From the NCBI GenBank assembly GCA_963602685.1, contig CAVCJG010000003.1, positions 560 through 64,559 on the forward strand: a stretch of DNA of 64,000 nt, given 5' to 3'. This document shows, in pieces, positions 45,059-52,600 of this stretch. Position numbers and translations under genes: made by a program. This DNA is from Eggerthellaceae bacterium. GTDB taxonomy: Bacteria > Bacillota > Clostridia > Christensenellales > UBA1242. How positions within the stretch are numbered: the stretch's first letter is position 1; every line of letters begins with the position of its first letter. The notes beneath the pieces were generated by a model, which made no database searches, was not told the origin of the DNA, and saw only the letters and a list, made by a program, of their open reading frames with translations.

Positions 45059-47017
45059 TTAATCTTTTTTGCCTAATTTTTTCTTTAAAATTAGTATTTT
45101 ATTTCGAATTTCAATCGCTCTTTCAAAATCAAGCGAATTAGAAGCAAGTTTCATCATGCTTGTCAAGCGCTCAATTTCAGCCGGAATATCTTTCTTTTTA
45201 ATTTCATCAGCTGTCACCTTTTTGGTGATTTCAAGAGTGTTCTTAACATTCTTTTTAATTGTTTTTGGAGTTATTCCGTGCTCTTTGTTGTATTGATTTT
45301 GTATCTCGCGACGTCTTGCTGTTTCGTCAATCGCACGTCTCATCGAGTCGGTTATTTCATCGGCATACATAATCGCTCTGCCGTTTTCATTTCGCGCAAC
45401 TCTTCCGATTGTTTGAATCAACGCTCCTTCGCTGCGCAAGAACCCTTCTTTGTCGGCATCTAAAATTGCGACCAATTCAACTTCCGGCATATCAAGACCT
45501 TCCCTAAGCAAGTTGATTCCTACAAGCACATCAAATTCGCCATTTCGAAGTCCATTGATAATTTCAACACGCTCCATGGTGTCAATCTCAGAATGCAAAT
45601 ATTTAACTTTAATTTTGCGGTCGCCAAGATAAGTTGTCAAACTTTCAGCCATTTTCTTTGTCAGCGTGGTTACAAGCACACGAGCCCCGCGCGCGATTGT
45701 CGCGTTTATTTCTGAAATCAAATCATCAATCTGGCCTTTCGAAGGTCGAACTTCAATGGTCGGATCAAGCAGCCCAGTAGGTCTAAGCAACTGTTCAACA
45801 ACCTGTCCAGCCCTAGAAAGTTCGTATGGTGCAGGAGTCGCCGAGACATACAAAGTCTGCCCCAAGCGTTCATTAAATTCGTCAAATTTAAGCGGTCTGT
45901 TGTCGCGCGCTGCTTCAAGGCGGAATCCAAATTCAATCAAATTATCTTTTCGCGCCTTGTCGCCGTTATACATCGCTCTAACCTGTGGCAGAGTCATATG
46001 ACTTTCGTCAATAATTGTTAAAAATCCACGTGGAAAATAATCCATCAAAGTGAATGGTGGCTCGCCAGGCTTTCGCCCGTCAAAGTATCTCGAATAATTT
46101 TCAATGCCGTTGCAATATCCAAGTTCTTGCATCATTTCAAGGTCATATGCCACGCGCTGTCCGATGCGTTCGGCTTCAAGCGGTTTCCCTTCATCATTAA
46201 ACTTTTTAATCGCCTTTTCACGGTCTTCAGTAATTTCTGCAATCGCTCTTTTCAAGCGTTCGTTTCCTACTGCATAATGAGTCGCAGGGTAAATCGCAGC
46301 ATAGCCAACTTCGTTTAACATATTTCCAGTAATTGGATCAAATTCAAACATTTTTTCAATTTCATCACCAAAAAAACGCACTCTAAGCGCCATTTCTGAT
46401 TGGTTTGCAGGAAAAATGTCCAACGTGTCGCCTTTCGCTCTAAACGTCGAACGCTTAAAATCCATCTCATTTCTGGTGTATTGAATGTCAATCAAACGCT
46501 TCATGATTTCATCACGATCAACGATGTCACCTTTTCTGAGCGATAAGTGCAAATTGTAATATTCTTCCGGGCTTCCCAAGCCATATATACACGAAACCGA
46601 CGCCACAACAATCACGTCTTTTCTTTCAAGCAAAGATGATGTGGCAGAAGAGCGAAGTTTATCAATTTCATCATTGATTGCCATATCTTTTTCAATATAA
46701 GTATCGGTCGGAACGATATATGCTTCTGGTTGATAATAATCATAATATGAAACAAAATATTCCACACGATTTTCAGGGAAAAATTCTCTAAATTCGTTGC
46801 ACAGTTGTGCCGCAAGAGTTTTGTTGTGAGCGATAACAAGTGTTGGTCTGTTTAATTTGGCAATTATATTTGCCATAGTAAAAGTTTTTCCGCTTCCCGT
46901 AACTCCCAACAGCACTTGTTCTTTTAAACCCTCATTAAACCCTTCCACAAGCTTATCAATAGCCTGTGGCTGATCGCCAGATGCTTTAAAAGGTGCATGC
47001 AAAATAAACTTATCCAT
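45059..47017 (-). CDS. uvrB: Excinuclease ABC subunit B
   Basis: The 652-aa ORF has Walker [14 protein letters not shown], a DESH box [11 protein letters not shown], helicase motifs and a C-terminal UVR domain ([13 protein letters not shown]-like: [17 protein letters not shown]). Confidence 0.98.
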
Positions 47018-47020
47018 TCT

Positions 47021-47380
47021 TTATCCTTTGAAAATAGTTTTCAGCACAAGTCCGAAAATAAAACTGACTGTCGCCAAAAACAAACTGCGCAATACAAGCA
47101 AACCAAAATTTCGCCGTTGACTTTTTGAATCTATGGCAAATGTCTGCCCTTTCTTTTTTAATGTTACACAATAATAATACCCCATTTTGCTTTCAGAAAC
47201 AACAAAATCAATATAGTTTTCATCAGAAAGCACTGTCATTATTTCATCAAGCTCAGCAATAGAAAGCACAAACTTTTTTGATAACGCCGCCGAAATGTCG
47301 CTTGGAGAAATTAGGCATGTCCTTTTTTTAGGGCAAACCTTGCAAAGATACAACATGACCAACCTTTCTTTTCTCGTCAA
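47021..47380 (-). CDS. Small wHTH-like protein with C-terminal transmembrane anchor (paralog 1); start uncertain
   Basis: The track ORF is 154 aa and overlaps the upstream gene by 38 nt. Ungapped alignment with the 48308..48670 product begins at ...KERLVMLYLCKV..., so the start is more likely TTG 47380 or ATG 47356. The C-terminus NFGLLVLRSLFLATVSFIFGLVLKTIF is a TM helix. The stop is 4 nt from the uvrB start. Confidence 0.6.
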   Translation of the reverse strand: MTRKERLVMLYLCKVCPKKRTCLISPSDISAALSKKFVLSIAELDEIMTVLSDENYIDFVVSESKMGYYYCVTLKKKGQTFAIDSKSQRRNFGLLVLRSLFLATVSFIFGLVLKTIFKG

Positions 47381-47447
47381 AAAAAGAGCGCCGCTCCTTT
47401 GTTCGGCTACTCTCTTTTTCCCATTTTTTATTTGTTTTAGACACTTA

Positions 47448-48080
47448 TTAACGTGATACTGTCCCGTCGTCTTTTTTTGCAACAAGTTCTGGACATGCCA
47501 TCTTTGCCATCTTTTGTCTCAATTCTTTGTGATATTGATTTGCTTCTTGCAATCTATTATGGCAATCTTCATATTCGTCATTTGCTTCATCAATATCAGA
47601 ACTTGAAACGCTGTATCCGCAAGATCTGTTATCATACAATTTATCCAATTTTTCGTCTGCCCATCTAAGTTGGCGGCTCAAAGCTTCTTTGTCTCTCATT
47701 GCTTCAAAAATAAACTTTAATTGAGATTCATAATAATACTCTGGAGCAAAAGACTCTTTAAACAATCTAACCAATTTATTATTTTCATTTAACGCTTGGG
47801 CGTAATTGTTTTTAGCTTCTTCAAAAACGGTTCTAAATTCATGTCCGTTGATAAAAATTTTATTTATATTGTCTGCAAGATATGGCTTCAAATCTTCAAA
47901 TGGAATTTCAATAAGTTCGCTAAGATATTGTGCCAACTCTTCATCATAATTAGTAATTTTGATATCTTCCTTTCTAATATAACCGAATGATTCAAGCCAT
48001 TCTTGAGGCATGTCTTCGTATCCTTCTGGAACTATAACTTTTCCATTCGCTCTTTCTTCAGCCCAATTTTCGTTCTTCAT
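47448..48080 (-). CDS. Hypothetical protein (210 aa), acidic, no recognisable family
   Basis: An AGAGGGGGAG RBS precedes ATG 48080. It is the first gene of an apparent operon with the wHTH-TM gene and uvrBA. Confidence 0.7.
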   Translation of the reverse strand: MKNENWAEERANGKVIVPEGYEDMPQEWLESFGYIRKEDIKITNYDEELAQYLSELIEIPFEDLKPYLADNINKIFINGHEFRTVFEEAKNNYAQALNENNKLVRLFKESFAPEYYYESQLKFIFEAMRDKEALSRQLRWADEKLDKLYDNRSCGYSVSSSDIDEANDEYEDCHNRLQEANQYHKELRQKMAKMACPELVAKKDDGTVSR

Positions 48081-48104
48081 TTACTCCCCCTCTTTGTTGA
48101 TTAT

Positions 48105-48134
48105 ATTTTACCACAATACAGCACCCTAAGTCAA
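48105..48134 (-). promoter_or_regulatory. Candidate promoter of the 210-aa gene / uvrBA operon
   Basis: On the minus strand: TTGACT (48134-48129), an 18-nt spacer, then TGgTAAAAT (TAAAAT at 48110-48105). An overlapping TATAAT lies at 48105-48100. Confidence 0.4.
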
Positions 48135-48171
48135 TAGCAAATTTTATTTTTGTCTAATTTTGTCGATATAT

Positions 48172-48273
48172 GTGGGCGTGCACCATCCGCACGCTAAGCG
48201 CGGTGACGGATGCGCTCTTCGCGACCGCGAAGAGCCCGTGCCGGCGGCACCCGCCGGCACTGTGCGCGCCCAC
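48172..48273. other. GC-rich 102-nt element folding as a near-perfect four-way junction (candidate structured ncRNA or palindromic extragenic element)
   Basis: By my count 76 of 102 nt are G/C, in AT-rich intergenic DNA. A 12-bp closing stem pairs 48172-48183 with 48262-48273 (one G-U). Three hairpins follow: 48184-48212 (catccg/cggatg plus an inner stem), 48214-48235 (ctcttcgcg/cgcgaagag) and 48238-48260 (gtgccggcgg/ccgccggcac). The linkers are only 0-2 nt. Confidence 0.5.
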
Positions 48274-48307
48274 GAATTATTATCGCTAATATTGCAAACA
48301 ATAAAAT

Positions 48308-48670
48308 ATGCTAGACTTAAAATCAACCTTAATATTAAAGATATTACAAAAAGAATGTCATGGTTCGGGATACAAAGTGATCGACAAGAGTGACATTATA
48401 TCTGCCATGCCTGCAAAATATCGAGTCGATGAAGAAAATCTTGACCATATCATCACATATCTAGAAAGAAGCGAATGCATACATGTGAAATATGACGATG
48501 AAAACGTTTATTGTTTATGCGTTCTGCCAATGGGAAATCAAATAACTGAAAAAGAAGAAAAAAACAAAAAAGAAAAGCCAAAATATTGGCTTTTGCTAAT
48601 TTTTATCGCTATTTTTTCAATGATAGGCGGTCTTTTAGGTTCAATTATTGCAAAATTTATAAAATTTTAA
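48308..48670 (+). CDS. Small wHTH-like protein with C-terminal transmembrane anchor (paralog 2)
   Basis: The 120-aa ORF shares ...IDKSDIISAMPAKYRVDEENLDHIITYLERSECIHV... with paralog 1 (about 17 identities over 58 hand-aligned positions). The C-terminus YWLLLIFIAIFSMIGGLLGSIIAKFI is a TM helix. Confidence 0.7.
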   Translation: MLDLKSTLILKILQKECHGSGYKVIDKSDIISAMPAKYRVDEENLDHIITYLERSECIHVKYDDENVYCLCVLPMGNQITEKEEKNKKEKPKYWLLLIFIAIFSMIGGLLGSIIAKFIKF

Positions 48671-49368
48671 TTGGTCCTAAATTCTCTAAAATATGTTTCA
48701 TGTTCCATGCTATAAACGCCGTCAATACCAACAATTATATGATCGGCTAATGGCACATTCAAACTGCTAAGCAAAGTGCGAACAACTGCTGTCCCTTCTA
48801 TATCTTGTTGAGATGGCAATGCCTTGCCGCCTGGATGATTGTGAGCAAGAAAGATGTATGTAGGCTTTGAACTAGTTACAAACTTTGCAATTTGATGCGT
48901 GCTTACACCAACACTGTTAATTCCACCAGTGCCAAGTTTAATCTTTGACTTAACACGATTCGACGCATCAATGCCGACAATATAAGTTGTTTCAACTGGT
49001 TTAAAACGTAAAAGTTCTTCAAAGAAATCAGAAATATCGCTGCGATATTCAAATACATAACGTTTCGCAAGTTGTTGTTCTGTGTAGTAATCAAAAATTT
49101 CAACAAACAAATGAAGCTTCTTCGCTGAAGTTTCACCCATGCCTTCAACTTCTGCCAAATATTCCCAATCTGCATTCAAAACATCTGCCGCTGTTCCAAA
49201 CTTGTCCAGCAAACGATGAGCGAGTTCATTTGTATCGCAACGAGGGATTACATATGTTAAAATAAATTCTAATGCTTGAACATTGCTCACCTTATCGAGA
49301 CCTGCGTCGAGAATAGTTTCAAGCAATCTTTGTCTGTGACCTGCATGCATATTCTTCTTTTCTTCCAT
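48667..49368 (-). CDS. radC: RadC-family JAMM-like protein
   Basis: The 233-aa ORF has an N-terminal HhH-like region (GHRQRLLE...), VGID and the AHNHPGG motif (RadC HNHPSG-type), then ...DI..T. Its stop overlaps the convergent gene's stop in the palindrome TTAA. Confidence 0.88.
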   Translation of the reverse strand: MEEKKNMHAGHRQRLLETILDAGLDKVSNVQALEFILTYVIPRCDTNELAHRLLDKFGTAADVLNADWEYLAEVEGMGETSAKKLHLFVEIFDYYTEQQLAKRYVFEYRSDISDFFEELLRFKPVETTYIVGIDASNRVKSKIKLGTGGINSVGVSTHQIAKFVTSSKPTYIFLAHNHPGGKALPSQQDIEGTAVVRTLLSSLNVPLADHIIVGIDGVYSMEHETYFREFRTN

Positions 49369-49454
49369 AATTAAAGCCCTTTATTTCAGACAAAATTTTA
49401 TCATTTTCGCCTTTCTAACGCAAATGATTTCGCATGTTTTCTAATATTTTTTTG

Positions 49455-49575
49455 CATTTCTCTCCACCCCGCGCGGGAGCAAAATTTTGCCCGCAAAATT
49501 TTTAGTCGGCTCACGCCGCCCCGCTCGCTCCGCTCGCCCTCCCGCGCCACATTTTCTGCAGTAGCAGGTGGCACA
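49455..49575 (-). other. Second GC-rich structured block, located in the radC 5' leader
   Basis: A long-range 9-bp pairing joins gcgcgggag (49471-49479) to ctcccgcgc (49539-49547). It competes with the local hairpin gcgg(ga)gcaaaattttgcccgc (49473-49494). There is a tandem CCGCTCGC x2 (49521-49538) and a ccacc/ggtgg pair (49464-68 / 49567-71). The block lies between the giant-gene terminator and the radC start at 49368. Confidence 0.35.
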
Positions 49576-49600
49576 AAGAAATCTGGAAAATACAGGTTTT

Positions 49601-49637
49601 GCAAATAAAAAAGCAACTGTTTAAACAGTTGCTTTTT
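49601..49637. terminator. Bidirectional intrinsic terminator after giant gene B
   Basis: The sequence is aagcaactg-tttaaa-cagttgctt (49611-49634), flanked by an A-run and a T-run. The T-run abuts the stop at 49638-49640. Confidence 0.8.
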
Positions 49638-52600
49638 TTATAATTTGTTTATTGCAAAACCATTGCATACTGCTCCTGTCATATCTTTAAAGACATAACA
49701 TGTGAATCTGGATACATCCTCAATACCTTGCCAGTCGACATCACCATCTGTTTGAATAAAAGTATTTAATACAATTTCACTATATAACACATAATTATTG
49801 CTATAACCATGATTATCATTATTAAATGTAGGATGGTTGTCACCATAATGAAGAACAACATCTATCATTGTGCTGTCAGCCTTTAAAGTACAGCTATTAT
49901 CACCTTTTGCGAATGTGATACCTATGTCTACTTCACTTCCAGGTGTGTTTAAGCTGCCGCAAGTGTAAGCCTTATTCAGCCATTGATTATATCCGTCACC
50001 AACTCTTAGCGTCTTGTCAGAGCCTTTCTTAGTGTGATAGTATTTGTTTAAATTTAATCCGCCCCAACTTGAATTGCCGGCATATCCATTGCTTCCGGCA
50101 GCACTTGATAATGCTGCTTTATCTTCAGCCGTTAAGGATATAGATGAATTATCTTTTTTATATAAGATTACCGAACCTGCCTTTGCTCCAGATTTCTGTG
50201 CTCCACCAGCAATGGCCGATTTTGGCTTAGAACTAGTCCTTGTTGAATCTCTAGCCTCTGATGCTGCAAAGTATGCTATTCCTCCATTACCGCCATCTCC
50301 GGCCTTGACTATGCCATAATTGTGGGCAGAAGTTACGTTTTTCGAAGAGATGAGTGTTATTGTTTGTCCTGCTATATTATATTGTCCATTTGCTCCAATT
50401 ATTGTGCCATAATTGCTAATTTCGCAAGCGCCTGTTCCATTAACAATAGTTGGGTCAATTTGTTCACCAAAGTCATTGTAGCTATTATTAAACATTGAGT
50501 ATGATGCAAAATTTAAAAGTCCTTTTGCTTCTTCATTTATTTGACCTATCAACGATCCGACTATCATGCAGTTGCTAGAGTTAACTGTAGTCTGAGCCAC
50601 TTGATCTGGTGTGATTGGCACCACTGGTTTGTATGCCACTGGTTTGTGTGGCTCCGCAGCATAAGGAGTCGCAATAATTTCACCGCCCTTAACTTTTCTG
50701 GTAGTAGTTAAGGTCGCAAAATTTTCACTTCGGCCAAGAGTTAATGAACCATATATTTTTATATTTTTCACCGGTTTAGAGATGCTTTTTGCAAACAATC
50801 CCGTACTTCTATTCCCCATGAGTTTAAGATGAGATTGTCTATTGCTATAAATTGTTCCTGCAATCTGAACATCTTTAACTTCCTGAGTAACACTATTGAA
50901 TAAAACTAAATCCCGTTTAATATATGTTGACAACTGATAAAGATAATTAACTATATAATTATTTCCTGATAATCGCACTGCAAGACCTGGATATGAATCA
51001 TCAATTAATTTTAAATCAATATCGTCTGTCAATACTACACCATCGAATTTTTCAGTATTGCTTCCAGCACTACTTCCACCCGTCAAATCGATTGTCTTGT
51101 CCTCGGCTTTTGCTTGGTTGGTGTAATCGGCAGTAATAACATAAGTCACTTTTTTATCTACTGCGTTAAATTTTATCGTGTTCTTGTCTTTCGTATAGTA
51201 GTTATCTTCTTCACCAGACTCAATGGTTATGCCTGAAACACTAATTGTAATTTCAGGCTCGTTACCGCTAAGACCTTTAGTAAATGTTATTTCATCCGTA
51301 TAATATTGCAAAGTGCATGTAATGTTTTGAGCTTCAGCAGGTTTGCTATAATTTATTGCAACTTCTTCCCACCAGTTAAGTTCTGGTAAATCATCAACCA
51401 TTTCAACTTTGAATTTTATTTTATCATTTACGGATTCGGTGGATAATTTCAACATGATATCAACTTTATATTCTACATTGTTATAAGTGAATGTTTCACC
51501 ATTAACCACTTCAACAACATGAGTTTCTAAAGTATCGTCTGCTTTTGGAGTAGTATATGTAAATTTAACTTTATCTTTAGCTCCATCAGTTCCTTTAACT
51601 ATTTCATATTGAATAGAGTTTGAAACCTTTCCATCGGCTCCATAAAATTTAACAAATCCAGCATCTCCATCAATTATTGGCACTCCGCCGGCTGTTAATC
51701 TCACTTCACCACAGACAAGCTTTTTTTCTGTTAATACAGTGTATTTTTTGCCACCATAACTAAACTTGCCATCTTTTGCAATTGTAGTGCCGTTTATTAT
51801 AACTTCGCCAGAGCTTTTAATTAAATAATAAAGATCTTTATTGTCGACTCTTATCACTCCATGACTTCCAACTATCTCCGTAGTTTCTCCGCTTGCATAG
51901 AGTGTAACTACATTTTCGTAAATACCAACCGTAGGCTTAATTATTCCGTTTTGCTCCCAATTTAAATCTGAAACATATTCATATGTTTTACTTTTACTTG
52001 AAGTAAATATTTCTAATAAGTTATTATTATTCTTAAATTTTCCTTCTGGTATTTTTTGAGCTTCTGTAGTCAAAAGTGTAGGCGTTCCCCACTCTTCCTT
52101 ATTAAAGACCATATAATAATTTTTATTAGTATCTTCAGGCGCAGCAACAGAAATTGAAGTTAATGTATAATCAGCTGAATGGTATAATTCATTGTATTTT
52201 ATAATTCCACAAGATGATTTTATATCGCCTTCGCTTACTTCTTCATTAATAAGATTTTCAATACTTTTTTTATAAGTTTTTTCTATATCAACGCCTTTCA
52301 ACTTATCTGTCAGAATTTGATCATCTGGGTTAAGACCAGGCATGGTTGAATTACTATTTTGATTAAAATAGTCGTCAGCACTATCATATTTAAATGTGAT
52401 AGGCAATTGATAAATCATGAATACTATCAATTGCACTCCAGCTGTACCTGCTTTGTCTGCCACAACCGTGTATTGTATGTCTATTTCGGTTATGTTCTCT
52501 GAAGAATTGTATTTCATATTACTTAGCGAAATAATAACTCCTTGCGATTTATCATCTCCACTGGTAGCAATAAGTAAAATGCCTGATACGTTTTTGGTTG

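Follow-up and report, generated by a model that had tools for sequence, protein, structure and literature searches.

The window analysed here is a stretch of 64,000 nucleotides (C3:560-64559) from the 99%-complete, 978-kb genome of an uncultured gut bacterium of the Clostridia. According to UvrB, Christensenella-like MAGs and Candidatus Onthoplasma are its nearest named relatives, with identities of 66-69%. We refer to this genome as G000 and compare it with four relatives that are syntenic at the locus: the sister species G006, the DNA of which is about 93% identical, and G022, G007 and G046, whose UvrB proteins are respectively 93%, 92% and 86% identical to that of G000. The gene order is kept in the genus. 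A giant surface gene, radC and a gene for a 120-aa wHTH/TM protein stand on one side of an intergenic region, and the opposed uvrBA side carries, facing away, a variable gene of 174-486 aa, a 119-aa gene, uvrB and uvrA. The minus strand carries radC as well as the uvrBA operon, and the element that is the subject of this work lies between them, upstream of each of its two neighbouring genes.

The first gene of the uvrBA-side operon (47448-48080, minus strand) encodes here a protein of 210 aa with no assigned function. Its counterparts have 174-189 aa in G007 and G022 and 486 aa in G046, and a close orthologue (89% identity) is found in G006 only, where the adjacent UvrB is 100% identical. The operon formed by the 210-aa gene, the 119-aa gene, uvrB and uvrA is preceded by a strong sigma-70-type promoter (TTGACT-18-TGgTAAAAT, 48105-48134, minus strand), which was found in all five genomes examined (G000, G006, G022, G007 and G046). 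The five-genome alignment also contains a conserved block, TTTTGTCTAATTTTGTCGAT (48146-48167), with two TTGTC repeats 11 nt apart, which adjoins the insertion point described below on its left side and may serve the divergent promoters as an operator or UP element. The block TTTTGTCTAAnTTTGTCGAT, with its two TTGTC repeats one helical turn apart, is conserved between the divergent promoters of all five genomes and could be an operator, perhaps bound by the neighbouring wHTH-TM proteins. A sequence resembling it, AATTTTGTCG, occurs 20 nt downstream of another element of the genome, called C8a.

On the other side, the wHTH-like gene of 120 aa, which encodes a C-terminal TM helix, occupies positions 48308-48670 of the plus strand. 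Synonymous third-position variation across genomes begins at the ATG at 48308, which is therefore the true start of the gene, and no Shine-Dalgarno sequence was found before it (positions 48290-48310). The G007 counterpart of the gene has a TTGCAA-18-AATAAT promoter, the end of which is 5 nt from the ATG, and this suggests that the mRNA of the 120-aa gene may be leaderless; a candidate promoter of consensus quality for this gene was found in G007 only. A second GC-rich block of the window (about 60% G+C, 49455-49575) forms part of the radC leader, at a distance of 1.2 kb from the element. Its folding is weak, with -21.8 kcal/mol for 102 nt, and gives no closed junction, and the alignment with G006 stops within it, so that this block also varies between the sister species.

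The element itself is a GC-rich nested palindrome of 102 nt (48172-48273), present in one species only and assigned, like its parts and the blocks beside it, to neither strand. Its start is 38 nt upstream of the uvrBA-operon promoter's -35 box, and its end precedes the start of the 120-aa gene; an earlier note made from the sequence had likewise placed it between this promoter and this gene. Our count of G and C is also that of the note, 76 of 102 nt, for a genome average of 38.4% and flanking 100-nt windows of 24-41%. Folded as RNA with RNAfold, the plus strand reaches -74.9 kcal/mol (z -8.27), a stability equalled by none of 200 shuffles, and the minus strand -74.1 kcal/mol (z -6.19); with DNA parameters the two strands give -46.5 and -46.0 kcal/mol and the topology is unchanged. 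For either strand, as RNA or as DNA, this topology is a 12-bp closing helix enclosing three hairpins, with junction linkers of 0, 1, 2 and 1 nt (four junction nucleotides), so that the four-way junction described in the note was reproduced. Its opinion that such a junction is unlikely by chance also held, as a closed three-branch junction arose in only one of 1000 dinucleotide shuffles, looser criteria notwithstanding.

The closing helix pairs GTGGGCGTGCAC (48172-48183) with GTGCGCGCCCAC (48262-48273) through 12 bp that include one G.T, and formally constitutes a terminal inverted repeat. Hairpin 1 (48184-48212) has a 5-nt loop and a stem of 6+3+2 bp interrupted by two single-base bulges; hairpin 2 (48214-48235) is built of nine perfect bp with a GACC loop and hairpin 3 (48238-48260) of ten perfect bp with a CAC loop. 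Forty-one of the 42 pairs of the element are Watson-Crick, the sole exception being the G.T of the closing helix, which is a G.U on the plus strand. Four nucleotides, ATAT (48168-48171), separate the conserved left block from the element; they may be part of the inserted DNA, because ATATGGGCGCGCAC, in strain SRR1612387, is identical to the 5' end of C8a (14/14).

The samples ERR15441341, SRR13434679 and SRR1612387 each yielded a further assembly of this species, and all three contain the element, with the same 227-nt spacing and with neighbouring proteins identical to those of G000. Its presence in three independent assemblies means that it is no assembly artefact; it is real and fixed in the species, every sampled strain having it. 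Three haplotypes were distinguished, with variable positions at 6 of 102 sites in the element and 3 of 139 in the flanks. Counted from the start of the element, the variants are G to A at position 1, in the outermost pair; T in two assemblies (G.T) and C in two (G-C) at position 8 (48179), in the closing helix; A to C at position 20, in the stem of hairpin 1; A to G at position 35, in a bulge; A to G at position 53, which changes the loop of hairpin 2 from GACC to GGCC in two strains; and C to A at position 80, by which two strains lose the loop-closing pair of hairpin 3. The combination of A20C and A35G in SRR1612387 shifts the pairing register of hairpin 1, the lower stem of which becomes 8 perfect bp long; with -50.5 kcal/mol under DNA parameters, this is the most stable haplotype. 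Across strains, 96.8% of pair cells are still paired. The variation falls at loops, bulges and helix ends and stem interiors remain paired, an avoidance that is weak with so few sites (2 of 6; P = 0.19, not significant). The note had proposed a search for compensatory changes: within the species no pair was altered on both sides, and between species the comparison has no counterpart, the element being absent from the four syntenic relatives.

The orthologous intergenic region measures 124-150 nt in G006, G022, G007 and G046 and 227 nt in G000. In the five-way alignment, the 102 nt and the ATAT are missing from all four relatives, with a gap that falls between the conserved blocks TTTTGTCTAAnTTTGTCGAT and TTGCAAAyAATAAAnTATG. 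As the element is absent from four relatives, parsimony favours a gain in the G000 lineage, and the alignment shows that its arrival between the divergent promoters postdates the separation of G000 from its sister species G006. Relative to G006, about 23 nt of ancestral spacer were replaced at the insertion site, and the 34 nt of the right flank (48274-48307), which hold the putative -10 region of the 120-aa gene, are rearranged, with 63% identity to G006 against about 93-96% elsewhere. From its position in the alignment, the 3' end of the G000 element would lie where the -35 box of the ancestral promoter of the 120-aa gene is expected. We found no target-site duplication, for which the note had also asked: the flanks ...GTCGATATAT and GAATTATT... 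share no direct repeat. Import by homologous recombination was considered and rejected, since the divergence between G000 and G006 is uniform across the locus (about 93% identity over 2.7 kb, synonymous sites of uvrB included), with no divergent block. Runs of G and C at loci L129 and L041 of the relatives are ordinary coding sequence with no significant structure.

Searches with the sequence of the element returned no relative. There is no second sequence copy in its own genome, and blastn gave no match in 153 other genomes of the genus; in 400 genomes of the order it gave short chance matches only, the best of which, on inspection, lie in coding DNA or an unrelated hairpin. Matches in phages and plasmids were at chance level, and an exact junction-spanning 22-mer matched metagenome contigs twice only, in coding DNA of about 78% G+C and no hairpins. 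A donor copy and a related sequence were thus not found, and mobility would follow only from presence versus absence. Using Rfam in E-value mode on positions 47000-50500, a scan that the note had recommended, we obtained no match overlapping the element down to E = 10, and ARAGORN found no tRNA or tmRNA in it. A known RNA family was rejected on these grounds, in agreement with the failure of the note to match the element to tRNA or any known RNA class. The two ORFs drawn across the element, which the note took for spurious, have no significant family match (best E 0.055, below the cut-off) and rest on DNA that is absent from the relatives. An association with RAYT was rejected as well, the RAYT / IS200-type Y1 transposase PF01797 having no match in this 99%-complete genome and being found in 6 of 14 control genomes.

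Single in sequence, the element has kin in shape. By local folding of windows with at least 55% G+C, we carried out a census of structures that have two or more branches, a closing helix no shorter than 8 bp, up to 10 junction nt and a stability of -0.45 kcal/mol per nt or better. Besides one tRNA and one tRNA-linked repeat, it yielded ten closed elements: C1:61730-61861 (the dut locus), C14:1328-1429, C2:13607-13722 (upstream of leuS), C2:33124-33259, C3:48730-48833 (the element studied here), C3:126674-126808, C5:10301-10380, C5:50519-50625, C7:19308-19423 and C8:31102-31239 (C8a). All ten have exactly three branches, a closing helix of 10-15 bp and 1-5 junction nt, and fold about equally on either strand with 0-4 G.U among 42-59 pairs; in an all-against-all blastn they have only 9-11-mers in common. 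The architecture that defines the class, namely exactly three hairpins within a closing helix of 10 bp or more, no more than five unpaired junction nt, an intergenic location and folding of both strands, is that of the element at 48172-48273, which is thus related to the nine other loci by architecture only and is not one of the near-identical copies that the note would have expected of a MITE. The C14 and C5:10301 elements have a G+C content of only 41-46%, so the class is not strictly GC-rich, and AT-richer members may be missed because the census took only windows of at least 55% G+C. Two of the ten, the present element and C2:13607, are in divergent promoter regions; three begin 0-17 nt past a stop codon, and some lie between convergent genes.

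An earlier scan for GC islands had revealed further intergenic GC-rich hairpin clusters in the genome. Another GC-rich repeat, of about 110 nt, is present in three copies that are 95-97% identical (C4:455-530, C4:12374-12449 and C5:35817-35886) and is a true sequence family, unlike the four-way-junction elements. At C2:113599-114001, GC-rich collagen-like Gly-X-Y triplet repeats (GGnCCnACn...) lie inside an ORF of about 320 aa.

We then considered the turnover of the class, using seven other GC-rich elements, six of which are closed junctions by the census criteria. All seven are colinear in the sister species G006 at 91-96% identity, and only 48172-48273 is missing there. In G022, G007 and G046, the flanks of the tested elements align and the intervals are much shorter or empty. 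The site upstream of leuS is plain AT-rich promoter DNA in G007 and G022, which makes C2:13607 a second documented gain. At the dut locus, G046 and G022 contain simple hairpins only, and G007 contains a four-way junction (L121, G007:C10) homologous to C1:61730-61861, in which the closing helix and hairpin 3 have been kept and hairpins 1 and 2 have been rebuilt with arms that are still complementary. Hairpin 3 of L121 has been lengthened, relative to C1:61730-61861, by a symmetric palindromic insertion. The arms of the dut-locus junctions appear to evolve in concert. For C2a, which is in a divergent region, the changes between G000 and G006 include disruptive ones.

A link in sequence exists between the present element and C8a. 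The pattern GGGCGYGCAC-N(50-150)-GTGCRCGCCC occurs twice in G000, in these two elements, and in none of the 153 other genomes of the genus; the 5' end of the SRR1612387 haplotype, ATATGGGCGCGCAC, is identical to C8a over 14 nt, and the interiors of the two elements are unrelated. This suggests that an existing element can serve as template for the ends of a new one, a single shared helix being no proof of it.

Among known systems, the REP, BIME and REPIN sequences of Enterobacteria and Pseudomonas are, like the elements described here, extragenic, palindromic and richer in G+C than their surroundings (PMC2817692, PMC3733652). In both cases they are often found past genes or between convergent genes, can cluster into composites and vary by strain or species. 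REPs are single imperfect palindromes of 20-40 bp that belong to high-copy sequence families, have a conserved GTAG or CGTC head and are linked to a RAYT (Y1) transposase (PMC2817692, PMC3733652). By contrast, the present element is a closed unit of three hairpins within a closing helix, is single-copy and belongs to no sequence family, as the ten same-shaped elements share 9-11-mers only, and the genome has no Y1 transposase. It also lacks GTAG or CGTC at its ends, a REP feature (PMC3733652): these read GTGGGCG and CGCCCAC, GTAG is nowhere in the element and CGTC occurs once, internally, on the minus strand inside hairpin 1.

The GC clusters of yeast mitochondria (PMC4478555) and the hairpin elements of sponge and fungal mitochondria (PMC2800124) are likewise GC-rich intergenic palindromes of small AT-rich genomes, with presence or absence varying between close lineages and with no encoded transposase known. 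For these elements, substitutions biased to loops, variable flanks, merger and shuffling of hairpin modules and a transposition mechanism that is not known have been reported (PMC4478555, PMC2800124); the concentration of substitutions in loops and the variability of the flanks beside insertions are seen here too. They differ in being organellar, in forming multi-copy families (e.g. GC42, with an AG target) and in consisting of single or double hairpins, none of which applies to the present element.

Bacterial MITEs are multi-copy and near-identical, with target-site duplications and a matching autonomous IS. Together with the composite repeats Correia, RUP, BOX and ERIC, they have in common with the present element a length of about 100-150 bp, pairable terminal inverted repeats, an intergenic location and the capacity to alter promoters, but here there are no near-identical copies, no target-site duplication and no related autonomous element. 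Intrinsic (Rho-independent) terminators also have a stable GC-rich helix, and some of the sister elements are placed past stop codons, a few with T-runs; terminators are nevertheless single hairpins, and the present structure is a four-way junction with no U-tract, between divergent promoters. A full-text literature search found no description of such closed three-hairpin bacterial elements. By analogy, the lifestyle of the element resembles that of REP/BIME and of mitochondrial GC clusters, from which it is set apart by its closed three-hairpin junction and by having no sequence family and no transposase.

The explanation that we favour, with a probability of roughly 0.55, is that a GC-rich nested palindrome was inserted here recently and in this lineage only, as a member of a class of extragenic "cloverleaf" elements that is defined by architecture and has no shared sequence. 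Any role of the element would probably be exerted at the level of DNA, as a selfish or structural palindrome, and not through a strand-specific RNA. Selection on the fold could maintain the complementarity of its arms, as could hairpin-templated correction (intra-strand template switching), and the two may act together. Effects on the locus would be side effects: the element may occupy the place of the ancestral -35 box of the 120-aa gene, extrusion under negative supercoiling between the two divergent promoters is possible, and minus-strand read-through from radC into the uvrBA operon could be obstructed. The note had preferred a functional structured ncRNA. As a conserved ncRNA, this reading fails on conservation, family match and strand asymmetry: the element has no homologue at the orthologous site and none in 153 genomes of the genus, no match in Rfam, and strands that fold equally. 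The alternative offered by the note, a palindromic repeat, MITE or cruciform, came closer as far as the palindrome is concerned, but not in its near-identical copies with target-site duplications.

A strand-specific RNA element that is not conserved is an unlikely alternative, which can take two forms. The element might be a 5'-leader structure of the 120-aa mRNA, which assumes that the promoter of this gene is in the conserved block to the left of the element, or it might act on the minus strand as a roadblock or 3'-end stabiliser against radC read-through, in which case the element would halt radC transcripts that otherwise cross the 120-aa gene in antisense and reach the uvrBA promoter. The extreme stability of the element as RNA, its location between radC and the uvrBA operon, both on the minus strand, its presence in all sampled strains and a lone non-Watson-Crick pair that is a G.U on the plus strand are in keeping with such a function. 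Several sister elements, moreover, are directly past stop codons and some of these are then followed by T-runs (e.g. C5:50523-50621). C8a, which is in a co-directional gene context, is also instructive: its four differences between G000 and G006 are all structure-neutral on the plus strand, two being in an internal loop and the other two being transitions that leave G.T pairs (G.U in RNA), which hints at RNA-level constraint on at least some members of the class. Against this, all four relatives are without the element at the locus and do not need it there, no relative was found in Rfam, and the strands of the element fold about equally with almost no wobble pairs. On neither strand is the closing helix followed by a U-tract, and 47950-48450 contains no terminator-like site in either direction. 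No promoter scoring 9/12 or better separates the element from the 120-aa gene, and upstream there is a single plus-strand candidate, a weak one.

Repair of a DNA break might also have created the element de novo, through template switching or several rounds of fold-back (snap-back) priming, in which case each element would be a unique product of repair and no copy from a mobile family; this origin seems to us improbable. It would agree with the uniqueness in sequence of every element of the genome, with the lack of a donor, of a target-site duplication and of a transposase, with flanks in which about 25-60 nt were lost or scrambled, an outcome expected of end-joining, and with the joint change of both hairpin arms at the dut locus. 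However, a G+C content of 75% is hard to derive from local DNA at 30%, fold-back synthesis would not obviously give three hairpins inside a closing helix every time, and the closing helix in common with C8a points to templating from an existing element.

We consider it very improbable that the element is a protein-bound cruciform or Holliday-junction mimic regulating the divergent promoters via junction-binding or wHTH-TM proteins. The fold does hold under DNA parameters, and the element is placed 38 nt upstream of a conserved promoter and beside the conserved direct-repeat block. According to the twin-domain model, negative supercoiling in a divergent promoter region favours extrusion, and this is the kind of region in which the element is found. 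Yet the relatives regulate the same genes without it, the other nine elements are in unrelated contexts and no candidate binding protein was found. The outlying composition and the short chance-level matches to high-GC genomes might suggest that the element is an artefact of assembly or a piece of foreign high-GC DNA. This is effectively refuted by the insertion with strain-level variants in three other assemblies from different samples and by a four-fold nested palindrome unlike a random foreign fragment.

Beyond the young insertion that we favour, a broader and distinctly speculative reading, to which we give little credence, is that the class represents a new kind of genetic element, specified by structure and free of sequence, and that a transposase-independent process makes or remodels Holliday-junction-like nested palindromes, invariably with three hairpins within a closing helix. 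Such a process could be hairpin-templated DNA synthesis or junction-directed recombination, in either case perhaps with re-use of a closing helix that already exists. If this sequence-free reading were true, the copy studied here would be one made recently, for which the empty site and strain variants are known and C8a is a candidate template of the ends.

Structured GC-rich islands in AT-rich bacteria, which are routinely called ncRNA candidates, can thus be young palindromic DNA insertions, and one small genome documents elements that are united by shape and not by sequence. With its dated gain, a site that is empty in four relatives, three haplotypes and a closing helix shared with another element, the locus offers an entry point to the origin and persistence of sequence-unrelated nested palindromes without a transposase, the same question that mitochondrial GC clusters pose and that has been open for decades. 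For the organism, the element lies among the control sequences of the uvrBA excision-repair operon and of a small gene for a membrane-anchored wHTH protein, and it may have changed the regulation of both in this species.
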